Source: an uncultured Proteiniphilum sp.
GTDB taxonomy: Bacteria; Bacteroidota; Bacteroidia; Bacteroidales; Dysgonomonadaceae
Length of the DNA: 64,000 bases
Direction: 5' to 3'
Assembly (NCBI GenBank): GCA_927407015.1
Contig: CAKMJT010000006.1
Location: 2,153-66,152 of the forward strand
In this document: piece by piece, positions 9,205-56,424 of the stretch
How positions within the stretch are numbered: position 1 is the stretch's first letter
Layout: each line of letters begins with the position of its first letter
The notes under the pieces: model-generated
Told to the model about the DNA's origin: nothing
The model's input: the letters and a program-made list of their open reading frames with translations, nothing else
The model's database searches: none
Program-made: the position numbers and the translations under genes

Positions 9205-9205
9205 T

Positions 9206-16654: not shown

Positions 16655-16685
16655 TTGGTAAAAAAAAGAGACAGACAGAATCGGA

Positions 16686-30876: not shown

Positions 30877-31872
30877 ATGGAAAGAGTATCTTTGAAAGTG
30901 ATAGCCCGTGAGCTGGGTGTTTCAACAGCAACAGTTTCGCTCGTGCTGAACGGTAAGAATCAGAACGGCCGGGTGAGTATGGATGTGTCAGAAAAAATTC
31001 TGGCAAAAGCTGCTGAGCTGAATTATGTACCCAACAGTTTGGCCAAGGGATTGAAAATGGGTCATTCCAAATCGATTGGTTTGATTATAGCGGATATCTC
31101 AAACGTTTTTTTTGGTACCCTGGCTTTGCATATTCAGAATTATGCAGAACAACAGGGATACACAGTCATTATCGGTAATACCAACGAGGATCCCGAAGAG
31201 ATGTTGAAGATGATTACCTTTCTGAATTCCCGGCAGGTTGACGGTCTGATCATCACCCCCACAGAAGGAGGTGAGTTTATGGTGAAAGCACTTCTGGAAA
31301 AAGAGAAACCTTTGGTGCTGGTCGACCGGATCTATCCCGATATCCATACTGCATCGGTGATGATTAATAATTTTGAGATCAGTTACCGTTCAACCCGGCA
31401 GCTATTGAACAGGGGATGCAACAATCCGGCATTTATATCCTACAAACAGGATCAGGTTCATACCAACGAAAGGAAACGGGGGTACCTGGAAGCGATGCAG
31501 GATGCAGGTCATCATGTCACGGATAAGATAAAGGAAGTAAGTTACCAAAATCTTCAGGAAGATATGGATGGTGCTATTGAAGAGTTGTTGCAAATGAGTC
31601 CGAAAGTAGATGCTATCTTCTTTGCCACCAACTCTATTTCCATTAGTGGGATCCGTTCCCTGCTTAAAAAGGGGTTGCTGGTGCAGAAAGATATTCAGGT
31701 GATGTGTTTCGATGAGAGTGAAGCCATTTTATTGTTTCCTTTTCGGGTTCCCTATGTAAAACAACCGATCGAAGCGATGGGCAAGCGTGCCCTCGAACTG
31801 CTGATCGGTCAAATTGAAAGAAAAGAAAAATCGGGTCAACAAATTGTGTTGGAAGCCGAACTCGTTGTGTGA
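30877..31872 (+). CDS. LacI-family transcriptional regulator
   Basis: HTH 'LKVIARELGVSTATVSLVLNG' followed by a periplasmic-binding-protein-like sugar-binding core. 331 aa. Confidence 0.92.
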   Translation: MERVSLKVIARELGVSTATVSLVLNGKNQNGRVSMDVSEKILAKAAELNYVPNSLAKGLKMGHSKSIGLIIADISNVFFGTLALHIQNYAEQQGYTVIIGNTNEDPEEMLKMITFLNSRQVDGLIITPTEGGEFMVKALLEKEKPLVLVDRIYPDIHTASVMINNFEISYRSTRQLLNRGCNNPAFISYKQDQVHTNERKRGYLEAMQDAGHHVTDKIKEVSYQNLQEDMDGAIEELLQMSPKVDAIFFATNSISISGIRSLLKKGLLVQKDIQVMCFDESEAILLFPFRVPYVKQPIEAMGKRALELLIGQIERKEKSGQQIVLEAELVV

Positions 31873-38174: not shown

Positions 38175-38187
38175 TGATACCCATGTT

Positions 38188-39996: not shown

Positions 39997-40020
39997 TTTT
40001 TATTCTTAAAATATTTGATT

Positions 40021-40431
40021 ATGAGAAAGATAAGCAAAATAATTCTTGTTATACTCACCATCATGCTCTTTACGGGTTGTTACGATCGGGATATTATTGA
40101 CAGGAAAGATTTTCATCACACTTTGCCAAAGGTGGAGAATTTATCTTATTCCTTACAGGGGAATGTAGTGACACTCACCTGGCAGATACCGGATAATATA
40201 TCCGATGCTTTCACCAGGCCCCTGCAGGCAAGAGTTCAGGTAGTTGAAAATGATATCTACAGACAGGTAGTGACTGTCTATGATGAGCAGAACACGGCGG
40301 AGATTACCATCGATCCGGATAAGGATTACCGGTTCATCGTCAAGTTGCTGGGTTTCCTGACTCCTGACGCAAGGGAAGAGGGTTTTACCGACAGGGTCTT
40401 TTCAGAAGGAGAGATTATCGTAACAGAGTAA
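40021..40431 (+). CDS. small lipoprotein, 136 aa, single beta-sandwich-like domain (SusE/F position)
   Basis: The track start at 40015 is TTG. The ATG at 40021 gives MRKISKIILVILTIMLFTGC followed by YDRD. 'LSYSLQGNVVTLTWQIPDN' resembles an FN3/Ig strand pattern. Confidence 0.6.
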   Translation: MRKISKIILVILTIMLFTGCYDRDIIDRKDFHHTLPKVENLSYSLQGNVVTLTWQIPDNISDAFTRPLQARVQVVENDIYRQVVTVYDEQNTAEITIDPDKDYRFIVKLLGFLTPDAREEGFTDRVFSEGEIIVTE

Positions 40432-40579
40432 TTTTTATGAGCAGATAATATATTCATAAAGAATTTGGGAGGTATGTTAAAGTGATCTGAAATGAGCCAT
40501 GTGGGACATACCTTCCCTTCTTTTTTCATATTCTATTGTCATTTGTCTGGTAGAACCGATCATGCAATAAGGAAATCAA

Positions 40580-41986
40580 ATGAAACATATCTTACTGATT
40601 ATTCTTGCTTCTGTGTTTATGCTCTTCTCTTGCAGTAAAGAAGAGGGTGACACCCCGTATGTACCTGTGGAGGAAATTTCGTCAGTGCAAACCGATCTTT
40701 TTCCGGACAAAGAAACCAAAAAGGTTTCAACATTACTGAATTTTAAAAATCTGGAAAAAATTGATTACTTGCTTGTTTCAATGAGTGGGGGACCAAGCTA
40801 TTCGGAAAAGATTGATCAAAGCAAATTGTCAAACCCCTATTTATATAGCTATACCATCCGGCAATCGGATCCGGAATTCTTCAGACTCATCTTAAAGGCA
40901 GTTTACAAGGACGGCAACGTATCCAGGGATTTTTCTCTGAATATCGACAACAGGTGGGGGTTCTTTGTCAGAAAAGTAGAGCGGATAGCACGTGTAACCG
41001 GAGCACCTATGGCTGGAGAACAATTTCCCAGTCCGAACAATACACCACTGAATTGGAACGTAGGTGGCACAGATCTGGGTATCATTTGGGAGATGCAACC
41101 CGGAAAATATGGTATCTTTTTTGGGGATACTTTCGGGCGCGATTTTAAACCCGATCCTTCCAATCCGGGACCGAACGGAAGTAACTGGAGGAGCAATGTA
41201 CTGGCATTCTCGAGTGATCAGATCCTGGAGGACGGGTTGTCCTTCAGCAGCATGGCGACGGATGAAGGGGGGGATGCCCGTGAAATCATTTACGGAGGGA
41301 AAGACACTTCGGGTAACGGCGACTGGACCTCCATTCCAACGGCAGCTGTCAGAGCCAATGGTTTCGACTACGTACACTATTTCAACATCAGAAACTGGAC
41401 TGGTTGGGTCACCAATTATTCAGGATTCTACAAGTCGGCTGACAACGGCCAAAGCTGGACTCCTTGTGAAAATATCTCCTTCTCATCTACAAGTCACTTT
41501 GGTCAGGCCGGATTTTTCAAAAAGGACTCGTTTGTATACATGATAGGCACAGAGACTGGTAGAGACAGTAAAGCTTATCTGGCACGGTTTAAAGAAATGG
41601 ATATCGAAAAGAGGGAAAATTATGAATACTGGAATAGTCATGCCGGTGAATGGATGCGAGGTAATGAGCAGCTGGCAACAGTGCTGATTGATGACAAGGT
41701 AGGAGAGTTATCCTTTCTCTACAATGAAACGCTGCAAAAGTGGATTGTGGCTTATTTCAACGGTGACCGGTATAACATCACCATGCGCACAGCCGAACAG
41801 GTCACTGGTCCCTGGAGTGAACCATATGAACTGGCTTCCGGTAAAGATTATCCCCAGCTTTATGGTTCCTATTTTCATCCTTTGTCAGTCAAGGGTGAGA
41901 CACTTTATTTCACGATGTCGATGTGGATGCCCTACAACGTTTTCCTGATGAAAGTTCAAATGGCCGATATGGGTACATTTGAATAA
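40580..41986 (+). CDS. DUF4185 / glycoside hydrolase family 183-like lipoprotein (candidate endo-D-arabinofuranase) with N-terminal ~120-aa extra domain
   Basis: Lipobox 'FMLFSC' followed by SKEEG. The body has 'NWNVGGTDLGIIWEM..GKYGIFFGDTFG', 'NWRSNVLAFS', 'WTSIPTAAV', 'YKSADNGQSWT', 'YEYWN', 'GELSFLYNETLQKWIVAYF', 'TGPWSEPYEL' and 'YPQLYGSYFHP'. This is the DUF4185 pattern as I remember it. Confidence 0.75.
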   Translation: MKHILLIILASVFMLFSCSKEEGDTPYVPVEEISSVQTDLFPDKETKKVSTLLNFKNLEKIDYLLVSMSGGPSYSEKIDQSKLSNPYLYSYTIRQSDPEFFRLILKAVYKDGNVSRDFSLNIDNRWGFFVRKVERIARVTGAPMAGEQFPSPNNTPLNWNVGGTDLGIIWEMQPGKYGIFFGDTFGRDFKPDPSNPGPNGSNWRSNVLAFSSDQILEDGLSFSSMATDEGGDAREIIYGGKDTSGNGDWTSIPTAAVRANGFDYVHYFNIRNWTGWVTNYSGFYKSADNGQSWTPCENISFSSTSHFGQAGFFKKDSFVYMIGTETGRDSKAYLARFKEMDIEKRENYEYWNSHAGEWMRGNEQLATVLIDDKVGELSFLYNETLQKWIVAYFNGDRYNITMRTAEQVTGPWSEPYELASGKDYPQLYGSYFHPLSVKGETLYFTMSMWMPYNVFLMKVQMADMGTFE

Positions 41987-42065
41987 CAGTAATCGATGTG
42001 ACCAGTAACTGATATGCCATCACAGCATACTCTCAATAAATGTTCCACCATGAGTAAATAGGTGT

Positions 42066-43133
42066 ATGATGACAAAAATGAATTGCATACTAATCATTTC
42101 CCTGTTAATTGTGCTGTTTCCTGGTGGCAACAGTCTCTCCGCGCAGAATGATGTGCGGTTGACGCACTTCACGGAGCATGGGAAATGGATCCTGCCCTCC
42201 GACAGTTTCCCGGCACTGCCTGTCTGGGGACACAAGAATGGAATCAGGATAGGCATTGCTCCTACTCCCGGGCCCAGGGGACTGATCAGGATTTATACTC
42301 CTTATCTGGGTCACCGTGAGGATAAGATGATCAATTTCATCGCCATGGAACCGATTGCACGGGGTGAGGATCAACGGGGCTTTTCCGAGCTGGAGATGAG
42401 CGAGTTGGATGGCGTCAGGGGTAAACGGTTTTGGAGTGGCAACACGCCTGACTGCGATGCTCCCTACTCCTCCACCTCACCGTCAAGAGGCCGCATTGAA
42501 GTGATTGATGGTGTAGAGACGCTAACCCTTTATATTTTTTCAGAAACCTTCCTGAATGGTGCCAGACCCTATGTGAGGATCAGGTTCTATGAAGACCGGC
42601 CTTATGAACTGGAACTGACAACCTATGTCTGCCCAGAATCCAAAGAGCTGGAGTATCTGATCCTAACTGCCACGATGGGGAATTTTGCAAGATTGCGCAC
42701 ACTCTACCTCTCTGACGGCGTGAAACGATCAATCGAACTGTGGCCGTCTTACAATGGTATTCATTTTACAGAGCATGATCTAACACCAGTGGATGCCATG
42801 ATCAAAGACGGCAAGGGAGGTGTCTATTTTATTGCGGAACCGGATGAATCCGATCCGGTGAATGTGATCTATGCTCCCGGCACCGGAAATAACTGGATAT
42901 ACTACGGGAAGAAAGCCACACAATACTGGTATGTCCCTGAACCAGATCCCAAAATGGTGGGGCTGGCAAACGGCAGATATACTTACTGGGCAAGCAACTC
43001 TCCCATTCCGGGGGGTGTTTCGTTTGAGAATTTCGAACTGAAGTCTCCCTTCAAGCAGGGAGAGAAATTTGTATTTGGTGTGGTGCCTCTCACTGCCAAA
43101 GAATTAATCAAACAGATTGAGAAATATGAGTAA
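42066..43133 (+). CDS. hypothetical secreted protein, 355 aa (no family recognised)
   Basis: Signal peptide MMTKMNCILIISLLIVLFPGGNSLSAQ. The last 8 nt overlap the GH116 ATG (ATGAGTAA). Confidence 0.7.
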   Translation: MMTKMNCILIISLLIVLFPGGNSLSAQNDVRLTHFTEHGKWILPSDSFPALPVWGHKNGIRIGIAPTPGPRGLIRIYTPYLGHREDKMINFIAMEPIARGEDQRGFSELEMSELDGVRGKRFWSGNTPDCDAPYSSTSPSRGRIEVIDGVETLTLYIFSETFLNGARPYVRIRFYEDRPYELELTTYVCPESKELEYLILTATMGNFARLRTLYLSDGVKRSIELWPSYNGIHFTEHDLTPVDAMIKDGKGGVYFIAEPDESDPVNVIYAPGTGNNWIYYGKKATQYWYVPEPDPKMVGLANGRYTYWASNSPIPGGVSFENFELKSPFKQGEKFVFGVVPLTAKELIKQIEKYE

Positions 43134-46100
43134 CAGAAGAACCTTCCTGAAAAAAATGGGACTGGGTACCTTGGCAGCAGCAGGTTACCCGGCGGTCACC
43201 CCGGCAGAAAGCTTGCTGGGTAGAAGAGCAACGATTGATAAATTGTCTCTGCAGCTTGACAGAACTGTAAGGAACTTCAACGAGGTATATGAAAATGAAT
43301 ACCTGAGCAGGGTGGCATTCCCGATCGGTGGAATTGGCGCCGGCATGTTTTGCCTCGAAGGGAGCGGTGCGATCTCCCATCTCTCGGTAAACAACCGGCC
43401 GGAGATCTACAATGCTCCCTATGCCTTTGCAGGCATCAGCGTGAAAGGGCTGAAAAAGGGTGCCAAGGTACTGGAATCGACGGTCCCCACCTGGAAACTG
43501 TTCGGTCCCCGCGGAAGCGGGAACGGGCTGGGTAACCGCAATTACGGTCTACCCAGGTTTTCCAAAGGCTCCTTTCTGGCACGTTTCCCGTTCGGGATCA
43601 TCAAGCTGCAGGACAGCGATATTCCATTCGATGTGCAAATTGTAGGCTGGAGCCCCTTTGTTCCCATCGATGAGGATAACTCCAGCCTGCCGGTAGGCGT
43701 ACTGGAATATTCATTCAAAAACAACAGCGGAGAGAGGGTAGAAGCAGTATTCTCCTACAACGCGCGCAATTTCATCGATGAGAAGGGTGTGATCACTCCA
43801 CAGAAGAACGGGTTCCGACTGACCAAAGCAGTTGCCAACGGAGGAACTCATCCTGGTGGTTTTGCTATCTACCTCGACGACGACAACGCTGTTGCTGACC
43901 ATTGCTGGTTCAGGGGCGGCTGGTTCGATGCCCAGACTATCTTGTGGGACAATATAAGAAATGGAAAGGTGGTAAACCATCCTCCCATTGATGGGATTGC
44001 ACCCGGCGCCTCTCTCTATTTACCGTTTCAACTGCTGCCGGGTGAACAGAAAACCATACGCGTCAATTTCTGCTGGTACCTCCCGAAATCGGATCTCTCC
44101 ATCGGGCATCCCATCGTGACGGGTGAGGCGTTTAGGGGTAAAACGACCCGCGATGCAGTCAAAAATCAGCAAACGGTTACCGGTTATCAGGGAGCGGGTT
44201 TGCTAAACTCCTTTGACCCTGCCGGTGATGGCCAGGTGGGCATCCTGATCTCACCCCCGTTCCAGATCAGCAGACGCTACCTGAAGTTCCTGATCGGAGG
44301 TGGAAACAAGAATGAACTCACCTCTGTCAACCTGGTGATCGGTGACAAAATAGTGGAAACAGCCACCGGGCAGAACAGCGAATTGCTGACCGAGCGGATA
44401 TGGGATTTGAAAAATTATCAGGGAAAAGAAGCCAGGCTGAAGTTCGTGGATCTCGACACTTACGGATGGGGGCATATCCTGGCGGATCAATTTATCCTGA
44501 CCGATAATAGTCAGGAATCGATGAGAAATCCTTCCAACAATGCAATCGTGATCGCTGACTTTGAAAAGGAGAACCTTGAAGGGTGGGAAAGAATCACTCC
44601 GGAACAGCTCAATATACCGGATGCGAAGAACCCCTACTACAGGCCTTGGTATGCAGAGCGGTTCAGTAATCTTGATGAGTTGGTAGGCTACTGGAACGAC
44701 CATAAAGAAAAACTGAAAACCCATTCTGAACTCTTCCGGGATGCCTTTTATCGCTCTACCCTACCGGCAGAGGTGCTGGAGGCAGTAGCGGCCAACCTGA
44801 CCATCCTGAAGTCTCCCACCATTCTGCGTGTTGCCGACGGCAGACTTTGGGCCTGGGAAGGTTGCAGCGATGACTCCGGTTGCTGTCATGGCAGTTGTAC
44901 GCACGTGTGGAACTACGCTCAGGCGATCCCCCATCTCTTCCCAGCATTGGAGAGAACACTCCGGGAGACCGAGTTCCTGGTCAGCCAGGATGAGCAGGGT
45001 CATCAGAACTTCCGTTCCAATATCCCCATCTCACCTACCTCCCACGACTTCCATGCAGCTGCCGACGGACAACTGGGGGGCATCATGAAGGTCTACAGAG
45101 ACTGGCGGATTAGCGGTAACACGCAATGGTTGAAACGCCTTTTTCCTTATGTGCAGAAAAGCATGGAGTATTGTATCTGCACTTGGGATCCGAAAAGGAA
45201 GGGTTATCTTGAAGAGCCGCATCACAACACCTATGACATTGAGTTCTGGGGACCCGACGGAATGTGTACCAGCTTCTATCTCGGTGCGCTGACCGCGATG
45301 ATTGCCATGTGCAAAGAGGTGATTCAACCGTTCGATCAGTATGAAAATTTGCTCCGTAAAGGGAAGAATTATATGGAAAATGACCTGTTTGATGGGGAAT
45401 ATTTCATCCAGAAAATTATTTGGGAAGGATTGAATGCTCCTAATCCGGTTGAAGTGCAGTCGTTCGGCGGAAACTATTCGGAAGAGGCCCTGGCACTGCT
45501 GAAGAAAGAAGGACCCAAGTATCAGTACGGCTCCGGATGCCTTTCTGACGGGGTCCTGGGCATGTGGATGGCATCGGTCTGCGGACTGCCGGAGGTGATC
45601 GGGGATGAGAAGGTGAAAAGTCATCTAATGGCAGTGCACAAATACAATCTGAAGAGTACCCTGGAAGATCATTACAATCCGCAGCGGCCCACCTATGCCT
45701 GTGGTGAGGATGGGGGGCTCCTTCTCTGTACCTGGCCGAAAGGAGGCGCCTTGTCGCTTCCCTTTGTTTACAGCAACGAGGTATGGACCGGCATTGAATA
45801 CCAGGTAGCCAGCCACCTGATGCTGAAAGGTGAGGTGGAGAAGGGGCTGGAGATTGTCTGCACCTGCAGGAAGCGGTACGACGGGTCGGTACGCAATCCC
45901 TTCGATGAATATGAATGCGGACACTGGTATGCCCGTGCAATGGCAAGCTACGGCATGTTGCAGGGCTTGACAGGTGTGAGATATGATGCCGTTGACAAGA
46001 CACTTTATATCGATTCAAAGATCGGTGATTTCACCACTTTCCTATCTGCGGAGAAAGGGTTTGGTACGGTATCTTTGATGAATGGAAAAGTGTCTGTCGA

Positions 46101-46161
46101 CGTCGTATATGGTGAAATAGAAGTGAGTAGGATTCATGTTGGAGCAACAAAAGATGATTGA
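43126..46161 (+). CDS. glycoside hydrolase family 116 (GBA2-type) enzyme with Tat signal and an inserted ~160-aa module
   Basis: The track start at 43117 is TTG; the ATG at 43126 gives MSNRRTFLKKMGLGTLAAAG (twin-arginine). GH116-N: 'AFPIGGIGAGMFCLEGSGAISHLSV'. Catalytic region: 'WAWEGCSDDSGCCHGSCTHVWNYAQA', 'NTYDIEFWGPDGMCTSFY' and 'NEVWTGIEYQVASHL'. Confidence 0.85.
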   Translation: MSNRRTFLKKMGLGTLAAAGYPAVTPAESLLGRRATIDKLSLQLDRTVRNFNEVYENEYLSRVAFPIGGIGAGMFCLEGSGAISHLSVNNRPEIYNAPYAFAGISVKGLKKGAKVLESTVPTWKLFGPRGSGNGLGNRNYGLPRFSKGSFLARFPFGIIKLQDSDIPFDVQIVGWSPFVPIDEDNSSLPVGVLEYSFKNNSGERVEAVFSYNARNFIDEKGVITPQKNGFRLTKAVANGGTHPGGFAIYLDDDNAVADHCWFRGGWFDAQTILWDNIRNGKVVNHPPIDGIAPGASLYLPFQLLPGEQKTIRVNFCWYLPKSDLSIGHPIVTGEAFRGKTTRDAVKNQQTVTGYQGAGLLNSFDPAGDGQVGILISPPFQISRRYLKFLIGGGNKNELTSVNLVIGDKIVETATGQNSELLTERIWDLKNYQGKEARLKFVDLDTYGWGHILADQFILTDNSQESMRNPSNNAIVIADFEKENLEGWERITPEQLNIPDAKNPYYRPWYAERFSNLDELVGYWNDHKEKLKTHSELFRDAFYRSTLPAEVLEAVAANLTILKSPTILRVADGRLWAWEGCSDDSGCCHGSCTHVWNYAQAIPHLFPALERTLRETEFLVSQDEQGHQNFRSNIPISPTSHDFHAAADGQLGGIMKVYRDWRISGNTQWLKRLFPYVQKSMEYCICTWDPKRKGYLEEPHHNTYDIEFWGPDGMCTSFYLGALTAMIAMCKEVIQPFDQYENLLRKGKNYMENDLFDGEYFIQKIIWEGLNAPNPVEVQSFGGNYSEEALALLKKEGPKYQYGSGCLSDGVLGMWMASVCGLPEVIGDEKVKSHLMAVHKYNLKSTLEDHYNPQRPTYACGEDGGLLLCTWPKGGALSLPFVYSNEVWTGIEYQVASHLMLKGEVEKGLEIVCTCRKRYDGSVRNPFDEYECGHWYARAMASYGMLQGLTGVRYDAVDKTLYIDSKIGDFTTFLSAEKGFGTVSLMNGKVSVDVVYGEIEVSRIHVGATKDD

Positions 46162-46273
46162 TCCAACTGTTTCCCTGATCAAACAGATAATTTCAACAAG
46201 ATATAATGGAGTAATCCAATAATTGTATAAATTTGTTCAAATTTAACTTAACGCACTAACTGAATTATTGATT

Positions 46274-47446
46274 ATGAATCTAAAAACATTTAATCTGACT
46301 CTCGTCGCATTTGCAGTGATTTCCTCTTCACTGATAAATGCCCAGAATCGTAATTTCAACGGTCTGGATATGAACATGGGTAATCTCTACCGCTTGTCCA
46401 ATGCAGAGACACGTTCAATCAGCCCGGAGAACTTTACCGGGGAAAAAGGAAAGGGAGGGATGGCTACACCCAATCCCAATGCACCCCGAAATGCCGCCAA
46501 TGCAACCCATGCTGCCCGTGACCTCGGACAGGGGTGGAAGGTGAACCCTTTTGTCACCATACAGCCGGGAGAGACCTTCACCATGGCTGAAATTGAGGGA
46601 CCCGGTGCCATTCAGCATATCTGGATGACACCTACCGGCAACTGGCGCTTCTCTATTATCCGCATCTACTGGGATGATGAGACCGAACCCTCCGTGGAGG
46701 TGCCGGTAGGACACTTTTTCGGGATGGGATGGAACGAATATGCCCATCTCAACTCACTGCCGGTAACGGTTAATCCCGGCAGCGCCTTTAACTGTTACTG
46801 GACCATGCCGTTCCGCAAGAAGGCACGCATCACAATGACCAACGTCAACGATGAACAGCCGATGAACCTCTATTATCAGATCGACTACACGCTGACCGAT
46901 GTACCCGATGACGCCGCCTACTTCCATACACAGTTCCGCAGGACAAAGGTGAATGCCACATCCAATTACACCATCGTGGATGGCATTAAGGGTGAAGGGC
47001 AATACGTAGGGGTATATATGGCCTGGCAGGTGAACAACAACGGCTGGTGGGGAGAAGGAGAAATCAAGTTCTTCATGGACGGGGATAAACAATTCCCAAC
47101 CATCATTGGCACCGGAACAGAGGATTACTTCTGTGGCTCGTATAACTTTGACCGTAACGGGAAATACGTTACTTTTACCACTCCTTATGCGGGACTGGTG
47201 CAAGTGCTGCCTCCCGATCTGACCTACAAGGCAGGACAACGTTTCGGATTGTACAGGTGGCACATAATGGATCCCATCCGTTTCAAAAAAGATTTGCGCA
47301 TAACCATACAGGATTTGGGCTGGCGTCATGGCGGCCGTTACCTGCCCCAACAGTCGGATATCTCTTCCGCCGTATTCTGGTACCAGACCGAGCCTCATGC
47401 TGCCTTCCCCAACCTTCCCACCTGGCAGGAACTCGAAGTCAACTAA
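46274..47446 (+). CDS. DUF2961 / GH172 protein (paralog b), secreted
   Basis: The track start at 46268 is TTG; the ATG at 46274 gives MNLKTFNLTLVAFAVISSSLINAQ. Contains 'GPGAIQHIWMTP', 'IIRIYWDDETEPSVEVPVGHFFGMGW', 'YWTMPFRKKARITMTN' and 'GTGTEDYFCGSYNF'. Confidence 0.85.
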   Translation: MNLKTFNLTLVAFAVISSSLINAQNRNFNGLDMNMGNLYRLSNAETRSISPENFTGEKGKGGMATPNPNAPRNAANATHAARDLGQGWKVNPFVTIQPGETFTMAEIEGPGAIQHIWMTPTGNWRFSIIRIYWDDETEPSVEVPVGHFFGMGWNEYAHLNSLPVTVNPGSAFNCYWTMPFRKKARITMTNVNDEQPMNLYYQIDYTLTDVPDDAAYFHTQFRRTKVNATSNYTIVDGIKGEGQYVGVYMAWQVNNNGWWGEGEIKFFMDGDKQFPTIIGTGTEDYFCGSYNFDRNGKYVTFTTPYAGLVQVLPPDLTYKAGQRFGLYRWHIMDPIRFKKDLRITIQDLGWRHGGRYLPQQSDISSAVFWYQTEPHAAFPNLPTWQELEVN

Positions 47447-47468
47447 TCAAAAAAACAATTTTTTTATA

Positions 47469-49409
47469 ATGCGTACGATCAAAACAACATTGCTTTTCTC
47501 AATCCTGCTGCTGCCAGGCATCACCTCCCTGCAGGGACAAAACAATCGCTTCCGCTGGAGCAGCGAACTGGAACAGCTGAAAAGAGTGGATCAGCTTCCT
47601 CTCTACAGAGAACGGCAGCTCATTGACCAGGAATCGAGTTACGACCGTACAGGCGGCAACAACGACGGCTTCTCGGGACATTACTCCTATATCCGCAAAG
47701 AGGGGGATAACCTCGTACTGGCCGACTTCAGGGGACCGGGCGTGGTGAACAGGATCTGGACCCCTACCCCAACCAGCGACACGCTCCTCTTCTTTTTTGA
47801 CGGCGAGAATCAGCCGCGGCTGAAGATCTGCTTTATGGATCTCTTTAGCGGCAAGGTATATCCCTTCGTGAAACCGGTGGTAGGCAATGAGATCGGCGGA
47901 TACTACAGCTATATCCCCATCCCGTTCCAAAAATCACTCAAAATCGTCTTCCAGGGTAATCATCTCATGTTCCTTCAGATACAGTACCGCAAGCTACCAG
48001 GCATGAAGGTGGAGAGCTGGACGGGCGAATTCTCCCACTCCGACAGGAAGCTGTTGTCGGAGGTGGCAGAACTCTGGGCCGACATCACCCCCTCCGTGGA
48101 GAACTACACTGCAGGTCTTTCTGAAGGTGCCGTAATGGAGGAGAAAACCTTCACCCTGCTGCCCGGAGAGGAGGTTTCCTTCTTTGAAAAGGATGGTGCT
48201 GGTCGAATCGTCGGGCTTGAAGTCGATGGAGGAACCGCATTCGAGGGTATATACAAGGACGTGTTACTGGTTTCGTCGTGGGACAATGAGGCGGTAGAAG
48301 CGATCTATGCCCCCGTGGCCGATTTCTTCGGATATGCCTACGGCAAGCCGGCCATGCGCAGTATCCTGATGGGACGGCAGGCTACCACCAACTACTGCTA
48401 CCTGCCGATGCCCTTCGATCGCTCGGCATCCATGAAGCTGATTTATAAAAAGAGGAAGGGAGTGAAACAGAACCCCCTGTCGGTCACCACGAAGGTCTAC
48501 TACAACGACAACGGACGCAACCAGAAGAGCGAAGGAAAGCTTTACACCCTATGGAGACGCGAGAAGCCGGAGCTGGGTGAGTTTTTCACTTTCCTCGATA
48601 CCAAAGGCAAAGGGCACTATGTGGGCACCATCCACCAGGCACAAGGTTTGCGACCTGGCATGACCCTCTTCTTCGAAGGGGATGACACCACTTACGTGGA
48701 TGGTGGCATGCGCCTGCACGGTACCGGTTCGGAAGATTACTACAACGGCGGATGGTATGCCTTGCTCGATCGATGGGATCGTGGTATCAGCATGCCCCTG
48801 CACGGGTCGCTCGACTATTCCCTGCCGATGAACCGCACGGGAGGCTACCGCTTCTTCCTATCCGACAAAATGTCCTTTGAAAAGGAAATCTATCATGGCA
48901 TAGAGCATGGGGAGGTAAACAACAACTTCCCGGTGGATTATACCTCGGTGGCCTTCTACTACGCCAACAGGTCAATGAGCAGCAGAATGGAACCAACAGA
49001 AGCATTACGCAAGGTCTATCTGCCCGACACCCATGTCTTTTTCCCCCAGCTGATGGAGATCACTCTTGAAAAAGGAATACAGGTGATCTTTGATAGAGGA
49101 CTGGCCCTCTCTTCTTTTGGAAAAGGAGCTGTCAGGGTGATGCTGAATGACGTGCCGGAAGGAAAATACCGCGTACTACTCAATTATCACGAGGGACCCA
49201 GGGGTGCCGACTTCCAGATATGGCAGCGCCAGAACCAACTCTCAGAATGGATCTCAACATGGAAAGAGAAGGAAGGATACCGCGAACGAGTGCATGTAGG
49301 CGATATTCAGCTCACCCCTCAGACCAATTCGATAACGTTACATGTGAGAGACAACGGGAAGTCGAATTTGTTTGAACTGACCCTGATCACACTGGAACGT
49401 ATCGATTAA
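47469..49409 (+). CDS. DUF2961 / GH172 protein (paralog c) with ~150-200-aa C-terminal extension
   Basis: Start taken at the ATG at 47469 (MRTIKTTLLFSILLLPGITSLQGQ). The track ORF's upstream 47 codons overlap the previous gene. Contains 'GPGVVNRIWTPTP', 'LLFFFDGENQPRLKICFMDLF', 'YSYIPIPFQKSLKIVFQ' and 'GTGSEDYYNGGWY', then an extra C-terminal domain. Confidence 0.8.
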   Translation: MRTIKTTLLFSILLLPGITSLQGQNNRFRWSSELEQLKRVDQLPLYRERQLIDQESSYDRTGGNNDGFSGHYSYIRKEGDNLVLADFRGPGVVNRIWTPTPTSDTLLFFFDGENQPRLKICFMDLFSGKVYPFVKPVVGNEIGGYYSYIPIPFQKSLKIVFQGNHLMFLQIQYRKLPGMKVESWTGEFSHSDRKLLSEVAELWADITPSVENYTAGLSEGAVMEEKTFTLLPGEEVSFFEKDGAGRIVGLEVDGGTAFEGIYKDVLLVSSWDNEAVEAIYAPVADFFGYAYGKPAMRSILMGRQATTNYCYLPMPFDRSASMKLIYKKRKGVKQNPLSVTTKVYYNDNGRNQKSEGKLYTLWRREKPELGEFFTFLDTKGKGHYVGTIHQAQGLRPGMTLFFEGDDTTYVDGGMRLHGTGSEDYYNGGWYALLDRWDRGISMPLHGSLDYSLPMNRTGGYRFFLSDKMSFEKEIYHGIEHGEVNNNFPVDYTSVAFYYANRSMSSRMEPTEALRKVYLPDTHVFFPQLMEITLEKGIQVIFDRGLALSSFGKGAVRVMLNDVPEGKYRVLLNYHEGPRGADFQIWQRQNQLSEWISTWKEKEGYRERVHVGDIQLTPQTNSITLHVRDNGKSNLFELTLITLERID

Positions 49410-49421
49410 ACAGCAGGATCA

Positions 49422-51521
49422 ATGGAACAACTTTTTTTGATCATTTCAGCATCCCTGCTTTTGCTGCTGCCCCCTTTTAAGGGGGCGGCGGCAGGCGGGA
49501 AGGCCATGGTGGAACCTGTTGGTGCCTCATCCCTTCCTTTTGACGGTGCTGTCAGCGAAATGATATACGACGAGCTGGGCAATGAGGCTGGGGTACAGAC
49601 TGTAACGGTTATCAGCCCGGAGCTGGTGCATCTGAAACTCGCTTTCAAGCTGGATCGGCCACTTCGGCAGGACGACTGGCGAATGACGCTGATGCCCGGC
49701 TTTACGCCCTCCTTTCACTGGGCGCCGCACCTCACCCCCACCCCGCACCATATCATCGATCAACATGTCTTTCGCTCTCCTGCACTTATCGTGGCGGATG
49801 AGAGGCAGGTGCTGGCATTAATACCGGATCTCGACATCATGCGGGTGGGGACACCGGTGAGATGGTATCTTGATATGGATGCGGAGCAGAACCAATTGAT
49901 CCTGGGGATGTGCAACAGCAGCGTGGATGACCATGTGCTGTTTCGGCGTGCACCGGGCGCCTCCTATCCGGAGGGTGTGGTGGAGGTGGGTTTTTACCTG
50001 CTCTGCACTACTGCGGAGGAGGCAATTGAGAACCCGTTCCGTAAACCGCTGGAGTTTATGTGGAGCCGCTGGGGAAACCCGCTCTACAGAAACGGTAATC
50101 CGCTGGAAGGATCACTGGAACCCTATGTGAAGCATACTTATAACTGGGCGTTCAACGGTTGGTACAATGCCGTATGGCAGGAGTTCACGCTCAATGGAAG
50201 AAGGGTGGGTGCCCCAGTATTCATCGTCAACGTGACACAGAGCCCCAACTACCCCGGCAGGGTGAATGAGCGCGAATTTCGCTCCATTTGGAACCAGGCA
50301 TGGTTCAGCTCCCTGCGCTCCGCGAGTGGTCTCTACCGCTATGCCAGGCGTACCGGTAACGACCGGTTGATGGAAAAAGCCCGGATGACCAAGGATTTGG
50401 CACTCTCCTTTCCGCAGCCGGATGGCTTTTTTTACGGCCTTATCGCCACCGAGATGGAAGAGGTGGAGGAAGAGGGAAAAAAATACAACCGCAGCAAGGG
50501 GTGGGACACCTACTACTGGGGTAATTCCAACCGGAACCCCTATAGTTGGAATCCCCGGGAAGCTCCTTTCCATATTCTCGACATGAGCTGGACCGCCCTG
50601 CTGATGCTTCGCTGGTACGATGAGCTGGAACAGGATCAACGCTTGTTCCGCTATGCGGAGACTTATGCCGCAGCATTAATGAAAAAACAGCTGCCGAATG
50701 GCTTCTTCCCCGGCTGGCTGGATCTGAACACACTCCAACCGATTCACCACCTGAATGACTCTCCCGAGACATCTTTGTCAGTCACCTTCCTGCTGAAGCT
50801 GTATGAACTGACAGGGAAGCAAGACTACCGCACTGCATCACTGAAAGCACTGGATGCCGTGATCCGTGAAGTGATTCCTGCCGGCAGGTGGGAGGATTTC
50901 GAAACCTATTGGTCCTGCTCTCGCTACGGAGCAGATCATCTGGTGGGAAAGAAGGTTATCCGAAACAACATGCATAAACAAAACAACTTCTCCATTTTCT
51001 GGACAGCAGAAGCACTGCTTGAAGCCTACCGGATTACTGGCGTCAAATATTACCTTTCACTGGGAGAGCGCACGCTCGATGAGTTACTGATGACCCAGGC
51101 ATCCTGGCAGCCCCCATATATGTATGTGAATGTACTGGGTGGCTTCGGGGTGATGAACGGCGATGGTGAGTGGAACGACTCGCGGCAGAGCCTTTTTGCC
51201 GAACTGATCCTGCGCTACGGCGCTCTACTTGAGAGAGAGGAGTACCGGGAGCGGGGTATTGCAGCTCTGAAAGCCTCCTTCGTGATGATGTACGCTCCCG
51301 AGAACCCGGTAACGAGCCGTCAGTGGGAGAAGGTTTATCCCTTCTTTGGAGAAGCAGATTACGGCTTTACGATGGAGAACTACGGTCACGGGGGACGAAC
51401 CAGTCCCGAAGGGGAAGGAATGGGTGAATTTACCATCTACGACTGGGGGAACGGTGCTGCTGCGGAGGCATATAACCGCATCCTAGATCATTTTCCAGAG
51501 ATTGGGAAAATAATAAGATAA
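49422..51521 (+). CDS. hypothetical secreted protein, 699 aa, C-terminal half looks like an (alpha/alpha)6-barrel
   Basis: Hydrophobic N-terminus MEQLFLIISASLLLLLPPF. Repeated helix-pair blocks: 'TALLMLRWYDELEQDQRLFRYAETYAAAL', 'SVTFLLKLYELTGKQDYRTASLKALDAV', 'FWTAEALLEAYRITGVKYYLSLGERTLDEL' and 'LFAELILRYGALLEREEYRERGIAALKA'. No family recognised. Confidence 0.7.
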   Translation: MEQLFLIISASLLLLLPPFKGAAAGGKAMVEPVGASSLPFDGAVSEMIYDELGNEAGVQTVTVISPELVHLKLAFKLDRPLRQDDWRMTLMPGFTPSFHWAPHLTPTPHHIIDQHVFRSPALIVADERQVLALIPDLDIMRVGTPVRWYLDMDAEQNQLILGMCNSSVDDHVLFRRAPGASYPEGVVEVGFYLLCTTAEEAIENPFRKPLEFMWSRWGNPLYRNGNPLEGSLEPYVKHTYNWAFNGWYNAVWQEFTLNGRRVGAPVFIVNVTQSPNYPGRVNEREFRSIWNQAWFSSLRSASGLYRYARRTGNDRLMEKARMTKDLALSFPQPDGFFYGLIATEMEEVEEEGKKYNRSKGWDTYYWGNSNRNPYSWNPREAPFHILDMSWTALLMLRWYDELEQDQRLFRYAETYAAALMKKQLPNGFFPGWLDLNTLQPIHHLNDSPETSLSVTFLLKLYELTGKQDYRTASLKALDAVIREVIPAGRWEDFETYWSCSRYGADHLVGKKVIRNNMHKQNNFSIFWTAEALLEAYRITGVKYYLSLGERTLDELLMTQASWQPPYMYVNVLGGFGVMNGDGEWNDSRQSLFAELILRYGALLEREEYRERGIAALKASFVMMYAPENPVTSRQWEKVYPFFGEADYGFTMENYGHGGRTSPEGEGMGEFTIYDWGNGAAAEAYNRILDHFPEIGKIIR

Positions 51522-51608
51522 ACAGAAGAGATCCGTTAGGCAGGCCATGCTGGTTACCCGATGGGAGTACAAGAAGATGAACAGAATGAAAAAACAATAT
51601 GAAACAAT

Positions 51609-52874
51609 ATGAAGAAACGAAATCAATTGAGTGGAGTCGTTGCCGCAGTGCTGATCGGGGGGGTGTTTACCCTCTCCTGCACAGGTAACAGGAAAAAAAC
51701 GGAATCTATGGAAATGAACTATGAAAAAGGAACGTTTGGGTATGACCTGAACTACCTCTCGGAAAAAGACAGCCTGATCCTCCTGAAATCGGAAGATGAA
51801 AAGGCACAGGTGATTCTTTCTGCAAAGTACCAGGCAAAGGTTTTCACTTCTACGGCTAACGGCCTGGAGGGAAACAGCCACGGCTTTGTCAACTACAAAT
51901 TCTTCGATGCCGGTATCGTGGATGAGCACATGAACGGCTTTGGCGGTGAAAACCGCTTCTGGCTCGGCCCGGAGGGGGGACAATACTCGGTCTTCTTTGC
52001 ACCGGGAACGGAACAGGTGTATGACAACTGGCACACTCCCAAGCCGATCGATATCGAGGCATGGGAGCTGGACGCTGCTTCTGCCACGGAGGCTGCTTTC
52101 TCCAAAGAGATGGAGGTGAGAAACTATCGGGGTACAGAGCTGAAGATCGGAGCTGAACGGAAAGTCATGTTGCTCTCCAAGGAGGAGAGCAGCAGGGAGC
52201 TGGGATTAAATCTTCCCGGGGAGATGGAGATGGTGGCTTACAGTACCGAGAACAGGATCATCAATCGCAACGATTTTGCCTGGAACGAGGAGACCGGTAC
52301 CGTCTGTATCTGGATGCTCGATATGTTTATCCCGTCCGACTCTGCAGTGACGGTAATCCCCTATCAAACAGGGAGTGAAAAAGAGTTAGGCCGTGTTGTT
52401 ACATCAGATTATTTCGGAGAAATCCATCCCGATCGACTGATCGATGAAAATGGGGTTCTTTTTTTTAAAACGGATGGAAAATCGAGGGGAAAGCTGGGGA
52501 TGAACGCGCACAGGACCAAAGGGATCGCGGCCAACTACGACCCGATCGGGGGGCGGCTTACCGTGATGACCTTCACCACACAACCTGACGCCACCTACCT
52601 CAACCAGGAGTGGAACCCGGAGAAAGATCCCCTGAAAGGTGACGCTCTCAACGCCTACAACGACGGCCCGCTGGAAGATGGTAGCATCATGGGCCCCTTC
52701 CTGGAGCTTGAGAGCTGCTCACCGGCCGCTTTTTTAAAACCGGGCGAATCACGCTCTCACAAGCACAATGTGTACCATTTCGAGGGTAATGAGGTCTCCC
52801 TCTCCCCTATTTCAGAAAAATTACTGGGTGTGAGCCTGGAGAAAGTAAAGAATATTTTTAATAGCAATCGGTAA
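51609..52874 (+). CDS. hypothetical lipoprotein, 421 aa (possibly mutarotase-like beta-sandwich; family not recognised)
   Basis: Lipobox 'GGVFTLSC' followed by the basic TGNRKK, which suggests periplasm-facing. 'NGFGGENRFWLGPEGGQYSVFF' is reminiscent of aldose-epimerase-like folds, but only weakly. Confidence 0.65.
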   Translation: MKKRNQLSGVVAAVLIGGVFTLSCTGNRKKTESMEMNYEKGTFGYDLNYLSEKDSLILLKSEDEKAQVILSAKYQAKVFTSTANGLEGNSHGFVNYKFFDAGIVDEHMNGFGGENRFWLGPEGGQYSVFFAPGTEQVYDNWHTPKPIDIEAWELDAASATEAAFSKEMEVRNYRGTELKIGAERKVMLLSKEESSRELGLNLPGEMEMVAYSTENRIINRNDFAWNEETGTVCIWMLDMFIPSDSAVTVIPYQTGSEKELGRVVTSDYFGEIHPDRLIDENGVLFFKTDGKSRGKLGMNAHRTKGIAANYDPIGGRLTVMTFTTQPDATYLNQEWNPEKDPLKGDALNAYNDGPLEDGSIMGPFLELESCSPAAFLKPGESRSHKHNVYHFEGNEVSLSPISEKLLGVSLEKVKNIFNSNR

Positions 52875-52960: not shown

Positions 52961-54406
52961 ATGAATACAAATTCAGAAAAACACCGGCTGGTTCCGGCAG
53001 GGATCATTTTCCCCTTTATCCTTCTCACTTCTCTCTTTTTTATCTGGGCGGTTCCCAACAACATGACCGACACCATGCTGGCGGCATTCAAGCGCATCAT
53101 GAGCCTTTCCGATACGCAGACAGCCTGGATACAGGTTGTCTGCTACTTATTGGGTTATGGCTGTTTCGCATTGCCCGGTGCCATCTTCATCAAAAAGCAT
53201 ACCTATAAATCGGGTGTCCTGCTTGGTTTAGGGTTATGCATTACGGGTACCCTCCTGTTTTATCCGGCGATGCTGGCCAACAGCATCAGTTCACCACTGA
53301 GTTTTGCAACGTATCTGTTTGCAATCTTCGTTCTGTTTGCAGGTTTATCAGTTCTGGAGACTTCAACGAATGCCTATGTATACTCCCTGGGTGATCCGGT
53401 AACCGCTACACGGCGACTCAATTTCTCTCAGTCGTTTAACCCTTTTGGCGCACTCTCCGGTGTTTTGGCGAGCCAGATTTTCATACTGTCGCAGTTAAAT
53501 ACCATGACTGCTGCCAAAAGAGATGCCCTGAGCGGATCGGAACTGGTTGCCATACAGAATGGAGAGTTGAATGCCGTGACCACAGCTTATATGATCCTGG
53601 GCGTAGTGATGCTGGTGCTCTTTCTGTTGATCTACTTTACCCGGATGCCCAAAGCACAGGACGACGATAAAAGTCTGGATCTGAAAGCAACCTGGGGACG
53701 CTTGAAGCGGAACAAGAACTACGTGTGGGGTGTGATTGCACAGTTTTTCTACGTGGGTGCCCAGATTGCCGTCTGGTCGTTCATCATTCGTTACGCCATG
53801 CAGCAGCTTAATTTCGATGCCGTTATTGCAGGCCTGGGAGCTAACCCTTCACAGGATGCCATCATTGGGGCATTGCGTAGTGTAGAGCCTATTGCCGGGG
53901 GATTCTATGCATTTACCGAAGCCATTGGCCTTGACGTTCTGCTGCCCCGTACGGCTGAGCAGGCCGGTGCCACCTATTACATCATGTCGCTCATCCTTTT
54001 TGTGTTGGGACGGTTCATCTGCACGTGGCTGATGAAATATATCCGGCCGGTCAACCTCTTATCTGCACTGGCTATATTGGCTGTAATCCTTTCGCTGATT
54101 GCCATTTATGGACAAGGATTTGCGGGAGTCTATGCGCTGATGGGCATTTCCGGATGTATGTCGCTGATGTTTCCCACCATCTACGGATTGGGTATGAGGG
54201 GGCTGGGAGAAGATACCAAGATTGCCGGATCAGGGATGGTAATGGCGATTGCCGGTGCAGCACTGCTGACCCAGATACAGGGAATCCTCTCCGATCAGGC
54301 CGGAAGTATTAATTTTGCCTACTGGGTGCCGGCTATCGCGTTTTTAATAATCGCTTTTTATAGTTTGACGGTTGCCCGCAGCAAAAAGCTGGGCAATGGA
54401 AATTAA
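52961..54406 (+). CDS. fucP: MFS sugar:H+ symporter, L-fucose permease (FucP) family
   Basis: 481 aa, about 12 TM segments. 'FFIWAVPNNMTDTMLAAFKRIMSLS' resembles the FucP N-terminal block (FFLWGFANxLNDILIPxFK). Confidence 0.75.
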   Translation: MNTNSEKHRLVPAGIIFPFILLTSLFFIWAVPNNMTDTMLAAFKRIMSLSDTQTAWIQVVCYLLGYGCFALPGAIFIKKHTYKSGVLLGLGLCITGTLLFYPAMLANSISSPLSFATYLFAIFVLFAGLSVLETSTNAYVYSLGDPVTATRRLNFSQSFNPFGALSGVLASQIFILSQLNTMTAAKRDALSGSELVAIQNGELNAVTTAYMILGVVMLVLFLLIYFTRMPKAQDDDKSLDLKATWGRLKRNKNYVWGVIAQFFYVGAQIAVWSFIIRYAMQQLNFDAVIAGLGANPSQDAIIGALRSVEPIAGGFYAFTEAIGLDVLLPRTAEQAGATYYIMSLILFVLGRFICTWLMKYIRPVNLLSALAILAVILSLIAIYGQGFAGVYALMGISGCMSLMFPTIYGLGMRGLGEDTKIAGSGMVMAIAGAALLTQIQGILSDQAGSINFAYWVPAIAFLIIAFYSLTVARSKKLGNGN

Positions 54407-56041
54407 ATGATTATGAATCAATATATTGTAGGGATAGACTATGGCACGGATTCCTGCCGTGCAATCGTTGTGAATAGCACCACAGGAAAAGAAGAGGCAT
54501 CATATACTGCTTTTTATCCGTGCTGGAGAAAGGGTTTATATTGTGACCCTGCCCAAAACCGCTACCGCCAGCATCCACAGGATTATATCGATTCACTGGA
54601 AGAGGCAATTCGTGGTGTTTTGAGGCAGATGAAGCCCGCAGAGATTGACAACATCGTCGCACTGGGTATCGATACCACCGGGAGTACACCCTGTCTGACA
54701 GACCGGAATGGGATTCCCCTGGCGCTGTTGCCCGGGTACGAAGAGGATCCCGACGCCATGTTCGTGTTATGGAAAGACCATACCGCCGTCAACGAGGCGG
54801 ATGAGATCAACAGACTGGCCCATGGGTGGGAGACCGACTATACCGCACGCTCCGGAGGAATCTACTCCTCCGAATGGTTCTGGTCAAAGGCACTCCATAT
54901 CCTGCGGCAGAACGAACGCATCCGCCGCGATGCCCGGGGACTGATCGAACATTGCGACTGGATGCCGGCACTGCTGACCGGCAACCTCTTGCCTGAGAAG
55001 GTGAAGAGAAGCCGCTGCGCCGCCGGGCACAAAGGGATGTGGGCGGAGGAATGGGGCGGTTACCCTTCCGCGGCGTTCCTTTCCAGGCTCGATCCCCTGC
55101 TGGGCGAATTCAGGGCGCTTTTAAGCGACGAAACCCATACCGGCGATACTCCGGTCGGGATCCTCACCGAAGAGTGGTCTGAGCGGCTTGGATTGCCCCG
55201 CAGCGTGGTGGTCTCTGCCGGCATCCTCGATGCACATGCCGGGGCCATAGGTGCCGGCATCCGCCCGAACAGCATGGTAAAGATCATCGGCACTTCCACC
55301 TGCGACATCGTGGTCACCCCGAAACAGGATATCGGTGACAAGCTGATCCCGGGCATCAGTGGTCAGGTGGATGGCTCCGTGATCCCCGGGCTGATCGGAC
55401 TGGAAGCGGGACAATCGGCTTTCGGCGACATTTATGCCTGGTTCAGGGATCTACTTTCCTGGACTGCAAATACCCTTCCGGAGAAAGAGAGGGTCGCATT
55501 GGCCGGTAACCTTTTGCAGCAGCTTACTGTCGAGGCAGAAAAATTACCACTTACGGTGGCAGACCCGATTGCCAACGATTGGCTGAATGGTCGCCGCTCC
55601 CCTTTTGCCGATCAGACCCTGAAAGGAGGCATTATCGGGATCACCCTGGGAACTACACCGGCACAACTTTTCAAGAGCCTGGTGGAGGCTACCGCCTTCG
55701 GATCGCGAGCCATCCTGGAGCATCTCGGACAAGAGGGGGTACGGGTGGATGAGGTGATCGGCGTGGGGGGCATTTCTCTGAAGTCGCCTTACGTGATGCA
55801 GACCCTGGCCGATGTGATGGGAGTACCCATCAAAGTGGCTGCCGCACAACAGGCCGGCGCATTGGGTGCGGCCATGTGCGCGGCCGTTTCAGCAGAGGTT
55901 TTCCATACAATGGAGAATGCCCGGGAATCCTTGGGACAGGGCTATAAAACGGTGTACGTTCCGCGTGCGGAAAATCGGGAGACATACAACGCATTGTATG
56001 AAAAATATTGGCAACTAAACCGGTTTTTGGAAGCAAGATAA
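54407..56041 (+). CDS. FGGY-family ribulokinase (AraB-like)
   Basis: The ATG directly abuts the permease stop (TAAATG). Contains 'YIVGIDYGTDSCRAIVV', 'GIDTTGSTP', 'SSEWFWSKALHIL', 'IGTSTCD' and 'GGISLKSPYVMQTLADVMGVPIKV'. The 544-aa length is typical of AraB. Confidence 0.8.
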   Translation: MIMNQYIVGIDYGTDSCRAIVVNSTTGKEEASYTAFYPCWRKGLYCDPAQNRYRQHPQDYIDSLEEAIRGVLRQMKPAEIDNIVALGIDTTGSTPCLTDRNGIPLALLPGYEEDPDAMFVLWKDHTAVNEADEINRLAHGWETDYTARSGGIYSSEWFWSKALHILRQNERIRRDARGLIEHCDWMPALLTGNLLPEKVKRSRCAAGHKGMWAEEWGGYPSAAFLSRLDPLLGEFRALLSDETHTGDTPVGILTEEWSERLGLPRSVVVSAGILDAHAGAIGAGIRPNSMVKIIGTSTCDIVVTPKQDIGDKLIPGISGQVDGSVIPGLIGLEAGQSAFGDIYAWFRDLLSWTANTLPEKERVALAGNLLQQLTVEAEKLPLTVADPIANDWLNGRRSPFADQTLKGGIIGITLGTTPAQLFKSLVEATAFGSRAILEHLGQEGVRVDEVIGVGGISLKSPYVMQTLADVMGVPIKVAAAQQAGALGAAMCAAVSAEVFHTMENARESLGQGYKTVYVPRAENRETYNALYEKYWQLNRFLEAR

Positions 56042-56424
56042 ACACGCGGTTCTTAATTTGTTTCTATCCAAATAAAAAACAGGGATTGTCTGTTCAGTTT
56101 GAGCAGGTGGTCTCGGTTTCAATTTTCAATGGATTTATTGATTTTCTATAAAACATGTCTCTATCACCAAATTACAGTGTAAAAATACATCTTTTTTGTC
56201 ACAAAACCAAATATGAGTCTGCTCCGAAAACCCTTAAAGCCGATTTTAATGGATTGTAATATATTGAGAATCAGGGTTCGTTTTTGTACATTTAAGCATA
56301 AAAGACTTATCGGAGGGGACTCAAATATAAAATTAAAATATATTGTAACAAATCCAGAGATTACATTGCGTTCTGGCAGAAGAAGGCGTTAAATTGAATA
56401 AAGCTCACAAGAAGTGATACCATA

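Follow-up and report, generated by a model that had tools for sequence, protein, structure and literature searches.

The cell wall of mycobacteria and corynebacteria has D-arabinan at its core. The use of this polymer by other bacteria was resolved only recently at the level of the glycosidases, and the cytoplasmic steps have the status of proposals. A 64,000-nt stretch of DNA from an uncultured Proteiniphilum sp. of the Dysgonomonadaceae (assembly GCA_927407015.1, contig CAKMJT010000006.1, positions 2,153 to 66,152; hereafter the window) carries, at 30.9-56.0 kb, a polysaccharide utilization locus (PUL) that encodes, besides its glycosidases, a fucose-type isomerase (FucI), a FucP-family permease and an AraB-family kinase. 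Which sugar do these three proteins handle? We determined their gene identities, operon layout, paralogy, conservation and phylogenetic distribution. All comparative tests agree with a module that would convert D-arabinose to D-ribulose and then to D-ribulose-5-phosphate in the service of D-arabinan glycosidases, a reading that we consider likely from sequence comparison. The general idea of an isomerase and a kinase acting in D-arabinan loci is not new, as a scheme leading to D-ribulose-5-phosphate is put forward in Shimokawa et al. 2023 (PMC10509167), and the gain is incremental in that the existing proposal is refined and broadened. New here are the three cytoplasmic-entry genes as dedicated paralogs, their occurrence in genomes that lack AraA, an operator unique in the genome, and the possibility that the PUL-linked kinases arose once, within AraB rather than within the D-ribulokinase family.

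Gene content and identity of the three cytoplasmic proteins

The genes between 30877 and 56041 are co-directional on the + strand, separated by gaps of 0-148 nt, with a LacI-family regulator gene first and the kinase gene last. Between them lie, in this order, the genes for FucI, GH172a, SusC, SusD, DUF4945, DUF4185 (GH183), a 355-aa protein, GH116, GH172b, GH172c, a 699-aa protein, DUF6786 and FucP. The glycosidase and glycan-capture families (three GH172, one DUF4185/GH183, one GH116, SusC/D and DUF4945) were assigned with Pfam. The combination of a SusC/SusD pair with GH172, GH183 (DUF4185) and GH116, by which we recognized a D-arabinan PUL, is present, and the Pfam scan of the PUL genes found no fucosidase. 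The synteny of the PUL block is kept in 25 related loci. Judged by sequence, the locus is homologous to PUL42 of Dysgonomonas gadei, a characterized D-arabinan locus whose GH172 and GH183 enzymes have been demonstrated to cleave D-arabinan (Al-Jourani et al. 2023, PMC10115798). The permease and kinase, the last two genes of the window locus, are probably its cytoplasmic-entry end. Furthermore, the GH116 enzymes of such loci are described as exo-beta-D-arabinofuranosidases (PMC10509167).

Open reading frames and NCBIfam scores agree on the isomerase, the symporter and the AraB-like FGGY kinase named in the first-pass annotation of this DNA. The isomerase (591 aa) scored 1047 bits against NF008220 (cut-off 775) and 1025.6 against TIGR01089 (cut-off 850), contains all three Pfam FucI domains and is 62% identical to E. 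coli FucI. Alignment revealed that it retains the metal (Mn) ligands E337, D361 and H528 as well as Q300 and Y440. Only these residues were used, as the recognition residues R16, W88, Y437, W496 and N524 of PMC6894278 did not map onto the E. coli numbering in the alignment. With FucI enzymes, the interconversion of D-arabinose and D-ribulose runs about as well as that between L-fucose and L-fuculose (PMC6894278).

The permease (481 aa) scored 409.5 bits against TIGR00885, well over the cut-off of 280.4, and remained under that of the enterobacterial model NF007524 (279.5 vs 427). Its identity to E. coli FucP is 38%, and it keeps the equivalents of FucP D46, E135, Q159, N162 and W278, residues that we take to carry functional weight in the FucP structure. 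In orthologous PULs the permease is 77-89% identical. Its closest non-orthologous relative (46% identity) belongs to an uncultured Paludibacter (locus L039, 2156-3547), where it is encoded some 4 kb away from an araD-araA-araB cluster and in the opposite orientation. Arabinose loci may thus be served by FucP-family permeases as well.

The kinase (544 aa) begins with an ATG at 54407, directly after the permease TAA that ends at 54406, an abutment already recorded in the first-pass annotation. It scored 665.3 bits against NF003154 (cut-off 428) and 570.5 against TIGR01234, slightly under the cut-off of 583.25. Both FGGY_N and FGGY_C were found by Pfam, the top PDB match was the Bacillus halodurans ribulokinase 3QDK (E 6e-89), and identity to E. 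coli AraB is 48%. Two other assignments were rejected. An L-fuculokinase is excluded by a score of 39.4 bits against TIGR02628 (cut-off 470.9) and by the lack of any match with a Bacteroidales FucK query, and a pentulose kinase of the DarK/RbtK/RblK type by 161.9 bits against TIGR01315 (cut-off 408.7). At the positions of A96, K208, D274 and E329 of 3QDK, which we take to be its L-ribulose contacts, the kinase has G92, K209, D275 and E333, the same residues as E. coli AraB. The first of these positions is a glycine in E. coli AraB and in 71/71 canonical AraBs, and the four contacts are identical in the canonical and PUL-linked clades. Only A96 is named among the 3QDK contacts in PMC12307932. 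Furthermore, of 148 columns with a conservation of at least 97% among canonical AraBs, the PUL clade retains 132. D-ribulose is phosphorylated by E. coli AraB, and enterohemorrhagic E. coli (EHEC) requires this kinase to use it (PMC12307932, citing Lee et al. 2001). Because the E. coli enzyme accepts this substrate, the PUL kinase probably needs no new chemistry, and duplication would therefore mainly provide PUL-coupled expression and independence from the L-arabinose regulon.

Paralogs in the genome and distribution across the family

The source genome (3.18 Mb, 94.7% complete) encodes second copies of all three proteins. Another AraB, scoring 733 bits and thus above the PUL kinase, is found on contig C16 in an L-arabinan cluster ordered AraB1-GH43-AraA-AraD, with a GH43 endo-arabinanase and a GH51 enzyme; the PUL kinase is 56% identical to this araBAD-linked AraB1. 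A second FucI (1120 bits) lies on contig C29 in a GntR(FucR-like)-fucI-fucP cluster (C29:33332-37713) beside sulfatases. The PUL FucI is 66% identical to this copy, and the PUL permease 41% identical to the C29 FucP. While araA and araD both stand beside the C16 paralog, the PUL kinase adjoins FucP in the D-arabinan PUL. Likewise, the PUL FucI heads the PUL under the LacI regulator and has none of the fucA, fucK or fucR neighbors of an L-fucose type. Given the separate araB1 on C16 and fucI and fucP on C29, the isomerase, permease and kinase of the window are, by sequence and context, each extra, PUL-dedicated copies. FucI scores in the family are 995-1041 bits for PUL-linked copies and at least 1102 for those in fucR/fucA/fucK/fucP-type clusters, with copies whose context was not examined filling the gap between them.

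The first-pass annotation had rested its D-arabinose reading in part on the absence from the window of the remaining fucose genes. The absence itself held. Using E. coli and Bacteroidales proteins as tblastn queries, we found no homolog of FucK, FucA, FucU or FucO in the window or on contig C6, where the only match was the kinase itself at 25% identity. No ortholog of any of the four was found anywhere in the genome, and so there is no complete fucAKU set elsewhere. However, this absence is not diagnostic, because the C29 fucR-fucI-fucP cluster lacks FucK and FucA as well in a genome with 6-7 GH29 fucosidase genes, and we dropped it as a key argument once that cluster had been found. The D-arabinose reading itself stands on the comparative evidence.

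Candidate substitutes for these enzymes are located on contig C1. A RhaB-like kinase (C1:3704-5251) that shares 40% identity with Bacteroidales FucK is encoded together with RhaA and RhaT, and the same contig encodes two unusual class II aldolase proteins, one of which has 432 aa and tandem domains (C1:15839-17137). The kinase and the aldolases are kept in all PUL-carrying relatives. In two relatives, the RhaB-like kinase and the tandem aldolase lie on the contig of the canonical FucI, within 3-22 kb. The RhaB-like kinase and the 432-aa aldolase may act together on L-fuculose as non-orthologous substitutes for FucK and FucA.

We then surveyed 121 genomes of the family and fetched about 20 kb around the high-identity kinase copies of 26 relatives. 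Matches to the window kinase were bimodal, with 64-74% identity in 27/121 genomes and at most 57% elsewhere. Among the 26 relatives, 25 copies adjoin D-arabinan PUL genes at the 3' end of the PUL, and in 23 the kinase directly follows a FucP ortholog in the order GH172b-GH172c-unk699-DUF6786-FucP-kinase. Every copy (27/27) has an uninterrupted reading frame and a fixed place in the PUL. Among 80 public loci sampled more widely, AraBs of lower identity adjoin AraA and/or AraD. Of the 27 genomes with the kinase, 19 have neither AraA (E <= 1e-50) nor a second AraB, some of them near-complete in one or two contigs, and AraA occurs in those genomes, and only those, that have an AraB1-type gene. The kinase therefore cannot serve L-arabinose in these 19 genomes. 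FucI is found in 27/27 genomes. Bacteroidales FucA and FucK orthologs, searched with queries from the fucI-fucA-fucK-fucP cluster of a relative, were found in 0/27 genomes, whereas the three control genomes do have them.

A further pairing was observed in a large Dysgonomonas-type genome, in which a third FucI and a third AraB-type kinase lie about 2 kb apart (G057:C3:310850-316267), separate from both the PUL42-type locus and the araBAD cluster of that genome.

Table 1. Features of the D-arabinan locus, in window coordinates
Feature	Position	Strand	Basis
Operator-like 13-mer TTAAACGATTAAT upstream of LacI gene	30836..30848	+	Exact match
LacI-family regulator, likely repressor of the locus	30877..31872	+	Pfam LacI helix-turn-helix + Peripla_BP_1/3/4
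Two more TTAAACGATTAAT copies just upstream of fucI	31890-31902, 31925-31937	+	Exact match; 35 bp apart
FucI-type aldose-ketose isomerase, PUL paralog, first operon gene; proposed D-arabinose isomerase	31970..33745	+	NCBIfam, Pfam
Glycan-capture and glycosidase block	33799..52874	+	Pfam matches; content as in D. gadei PUL42 (PMC10115798)
FucP-family major facilitator superfamily symporter, PUL paralog; proposed D-arabinose:H+ importer	52961..54406	+	TIGR00885
AraB-family FGGY ribulokinase paralog 'AraB2', last operon gene; proposed D-ribulose 5-kinase	54407..56041	+	NF003154
Terminator-like hairpin	56082..56114	+	15-pair stem, weak T tract; consensus match only

Regulation, proposed route and alternatives

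The LacI-family regulator reaches no NCBIfam equivalog. Homologs with 53-57% identity accompany FucI in four related PULs. The 12-mer core of TTAAACGATTAAT occurs in three copies in the 3.18-Mb genome, all at the PUL, and the LacI regulator therefore appears to control the PUL alone. No operator copy precedes fucP, ruling out an internal operator within the PUL. This pattern fits a LacI repressor that would act both on its own gene and on an operon extending from fucI to the kinase. The terminator-like hairpin starts 41 nt past the kinase stop, and the gene beyond it is convergent.

We propose the following route. Periplasmic GH183, GH172 and GH116 enzymes would release D-arabinose, which the FucP-family symporter would bring into the cell. 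There, the PUL FucI paralog would convert D-arabinose to D-ribulose, and the PUL AraB-family kinase would phosphorylate D-ribulose at C5, yielding D-ribulose-5-phosphate that enters the pentose-phosphate pathway straight away. The LacI-family repressor, bound at the three TTAAACGATTAAT sites, would govern both its own expression and the operon that starts at fucI, presumably in response to a monosaccharide effector. We infer the substrate specificities of all these proteins, and the position of phosphorylation, from families and context. Consistent with the use of these genes on the polymer, a published proteome of D. gadei grown on D-arabinan contains the PUL42 ribulokinase HMPREF9455_02482 with 29 peptides, 57% coverage and an intensity-based absolute quantification (iBAQ) value of 1.17e7, close to that of the PUL SusC (1.39e7); FucI reached 1.16e8.

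Several points weigh against this reading. The only companion sample of the D. gadei proteome is a phosphate-buffered saline (PBS) blank, and its values thus speak of abundance, not induction. No measured activity for any of the three proteins was found in the literature searched. Although the active-site residues of all three proteins are intact by alignment, no residue evidence for an altered specificity was found. A PUL-specific FucI signature is essentially lacking, the sole strict difference in a 14-sequence sample being L/I at position 83. The kinases of the Proteiniphilum-type core share ten specific substitutions, among them S318 and I273, the latter two positions ahead of the conserved Asp, but none of them occurs in Dysgonomonas PUL kinases and only one (I273) in that of Arenibacter, and we therefore ruled them out as a D-ribulose signature. 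The fucI-led operon probably runs 24 kb to the kinase, its co-transcription being read from the layout only. Finally, the RhaB-like kinase and class II aldolases on C1 could in principle take D-ribulose through phosphorylation at C1.

This last possibility corresponds to a route in the style of E. coli K-12, in which a RhaB-like FGGY kinase would phosphorylate D-ribulose at C1 and a class II aldolase would produce dihydroxyacetone phosphate and glycolaldehyde, leaving the PUL kinase with another substrate such as a different pentulose or a pentitol. The conservation of the RhaB-like kinase and of the two aldolase proteins in all PUL-carrying relatives speaks for it, as does the broad range of E. 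coli AraB, which reportedly extends to xylulose isomers and pentitols. We nevertheless regard it as unlikely, given that the PUL kinase is fixed at the operon end right after the permease in 23/26 PULs, that the PUL has no aldolase or glycolaldehyde-handling gene while the RhaB-like kinase keeps company with RhaA and RhaT, and that D-arabinose passing through FucI gives no other pentulose.

It is very improbable that FucI, FucP and the kinase handle L-fucose, or another FucI substrate such as L-galactose or D-altrose, released by the locus. L-fuculose lacks, by our own reasoning, the distal primary hydroxyl that an AraB-type 5-kinase needs, and the fuculokinase model gives a mere 39 bits. The presence of fucosidase genes in the genome and the scores of the three proteins as FucI, FucP and ribulokinase equivalogs in NCBIfam would suit such a role, but a separate fucR-fucI-fucP cluster lies by the C29 sulfatases, and the PUL, itself devoid of fucosidase, has the glycosidase families shown to release D-arabinose (PMC10115798, and as described in PMC10509167). 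Hardly credible, in turn, is a redundant L-ribulokinase that is carried along with the PUL and plays no part in D-arabinose use. While the kinase does pass the ribulokinase equivalog model and keeps all L-ribulose contacts, such a copy is difficult to reconcile with the genomes that lack AraA and any other AraB, with the intact state and fixed PUL position of every copy, and with the abundance of the D. gadei counterpart on D-arabinan. Annotation calls for caution with the names 'L-fucose isomerase', 'L-fucose permease' and 'ribulokinase', which in loci of this kind most likely denote D-arabinose use.

Kinase lineage and related systems

A tree of 124 kinase sequences, rooted on E. coli AraB, revealed strong clustering of the PUL-linked kinases, whose label changes 4 times, vs 31.5 changes expected when labels are shuffled. 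Support for the Proteiniphilum-type core clade, which has a long stem, is 100% in the Shimodaira-Hasegawa-like approximate likelihood ratio test (SH-aLRT). A group of 41 rows (support 91) also takes in the Dysgonomonas PUL42-type kinases and a kinase of Arenibacter (Flavobacteriaceae). In the approximately unbiased (AU) test, a single clade for all 38 PUL-linked kinases, those of Dysgonomonas and Arenibacter among them, was not rejected (p = 0.57), and the constrained tree was slightly better. These results are compatible with, but no proof of, one old Bacteroidales AraB duplication followed by spread with the locus. An independent recent duplication in Dysgonomonas, which the greater identity of its kinase to AraB1 might indicate, was dropped as the tree and AU test allow a single origin. 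The grouping of the Arenibacter kinase with Dysgonomonadaceae PUL kinases suggests that the module was transferred between classes. That the PUL-linked kinases form a distinct lineage of physiological D-ribulokinases, derived from one AraB duplication in Bacteroidales and carried with the D-arabinan locus, including into Flavobacteriaceae, is a tentative and rather doubtful proposition; if true, it would constitute a second independent origin of D-ribulokinases beside the DarK/RbtK family. The Proteiniphilum-type branch evolved fast and bears substitutions by the catalytic Asp (I273) and at S318. The Proteiniphilum-type kinases may therefore have shifted in preference from L- to D-ribulose.

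Two other kinase loci were observed in this context. Arenibacter sp. 6A1, a marine member of the Flavobacteriaceae, has the order FucI-AraB-LacI-FucP-DUF6786...GH116 (NZ_JAAXCQ010000013.1, 8185-20000). Two tandem, highly divergent AraB-like genes (G109:C12:22856-26220), 48-49% identical to the window kinase with a stem branch of 0.65, adjoin an AraD-like gene (52%) and are placed inside the PUL-kinase group of the tree.

The nearest known system is D. gadei PUL42, from the same bacterial family, which shares FucI, SusC/D, DUF4945, three GH172, GH183, GH116, a DUF6786-like protein and the terminal AraB-type 'ribulokinase' HMPREF9455_02482. The main text of the D. gadei paper does not discuss this kinase, which is listed only in a supplementary proteome table (PMC10115798). 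Dysgonomonas-type loci nevertheless differ from the window in gene order, as their kinase follows two GH183 genes and a FucP ortholog was not seen within 15-20 kb in four such loci. In sequence, the Dysgonomonas kinase is also nearer to canonical AraB (67-69%) than to the window kinase (about 54%). A D-arabinan locus of Microbacterium arabinogalactanolyticum is proposed likewise to take D-arabinose, by an isomerase and a kinase, through D-ribulose-5-phosphate to the pentose-phosphate pathway with genes inside a glycan-degradation locus (Shimokawa et al. 2023, PMC10509167). That organism, however, is Gram-positive and uses an ATP-binding cassette (ABC) oligosaccharide importer and cytoplasmic exo-enzymes, and its isomerase and kinase are, as described, also putative.

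Among enterobacteria, E. coli B and Klebsiella (Elsinghorst & Mortlock 1994, as cited in PMC12307932) combine FucI with a dedicated FGGY kinase to make D-ribulose-5-phosphate, and the D-ribulokinase gene of E. coli B is cited there as inserted in the fuc locus. Their DarK/RbtK enzymes belong to the TIGR01315 family, whereas the window kinase is of the AraB family and so of different evolutionary origin. In EHEC, the Aau/AraB system (Cottam et al. 2025, PMC12307932) provides a case of an AraB-type L-ribulokinase that physiologically phosphorylates D-ribulose. EHEC borrows the housekeeping araBAD kinase and needs L-arabinose induction, in contrast to the window, where a separate paralog lies in the D-arabinan operon. 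The FucI-FucK-FucA route of E. coli K-12 (LeBlanc & Mortlock 1971, as cited in PMC6894278) has FucI as its first step and probably FucP-type uptake in common with the window, but phosphorylates C1 before cleavage by FucA, and the window genome has no FucK or FucA ortholog.

The locus and its 26 orthologs thus supply candidate genes for the cytoplasmic steps of D-arabinan use, namely the FucP, FucI and AraB paralogs, along with a LacI-family candidate for a switch that senses a monosaccharide, its operator being unique in the genome. The module would also illustrate how a promiscuous kinase family can be recruited via duplication rather than through changed chemistry.

Three further proteins of the glycosidase block may be noted. 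The 355-aa protein (42066-43133) and the 699-aa protein (49422-51521), neither with a Pfam match, and DUF6786 (51609-52874) are arranged in the same way in over 20 D-arabinan PULs of this family. A DUF6786 homolog with 42% identity occurs in the Arenibacter locus, and HMPREF9455_02469, an uncharacterized D. gadei PUL42 protein of 416 aa, a length like that of DUF6786, is abundant on D-arabinan.

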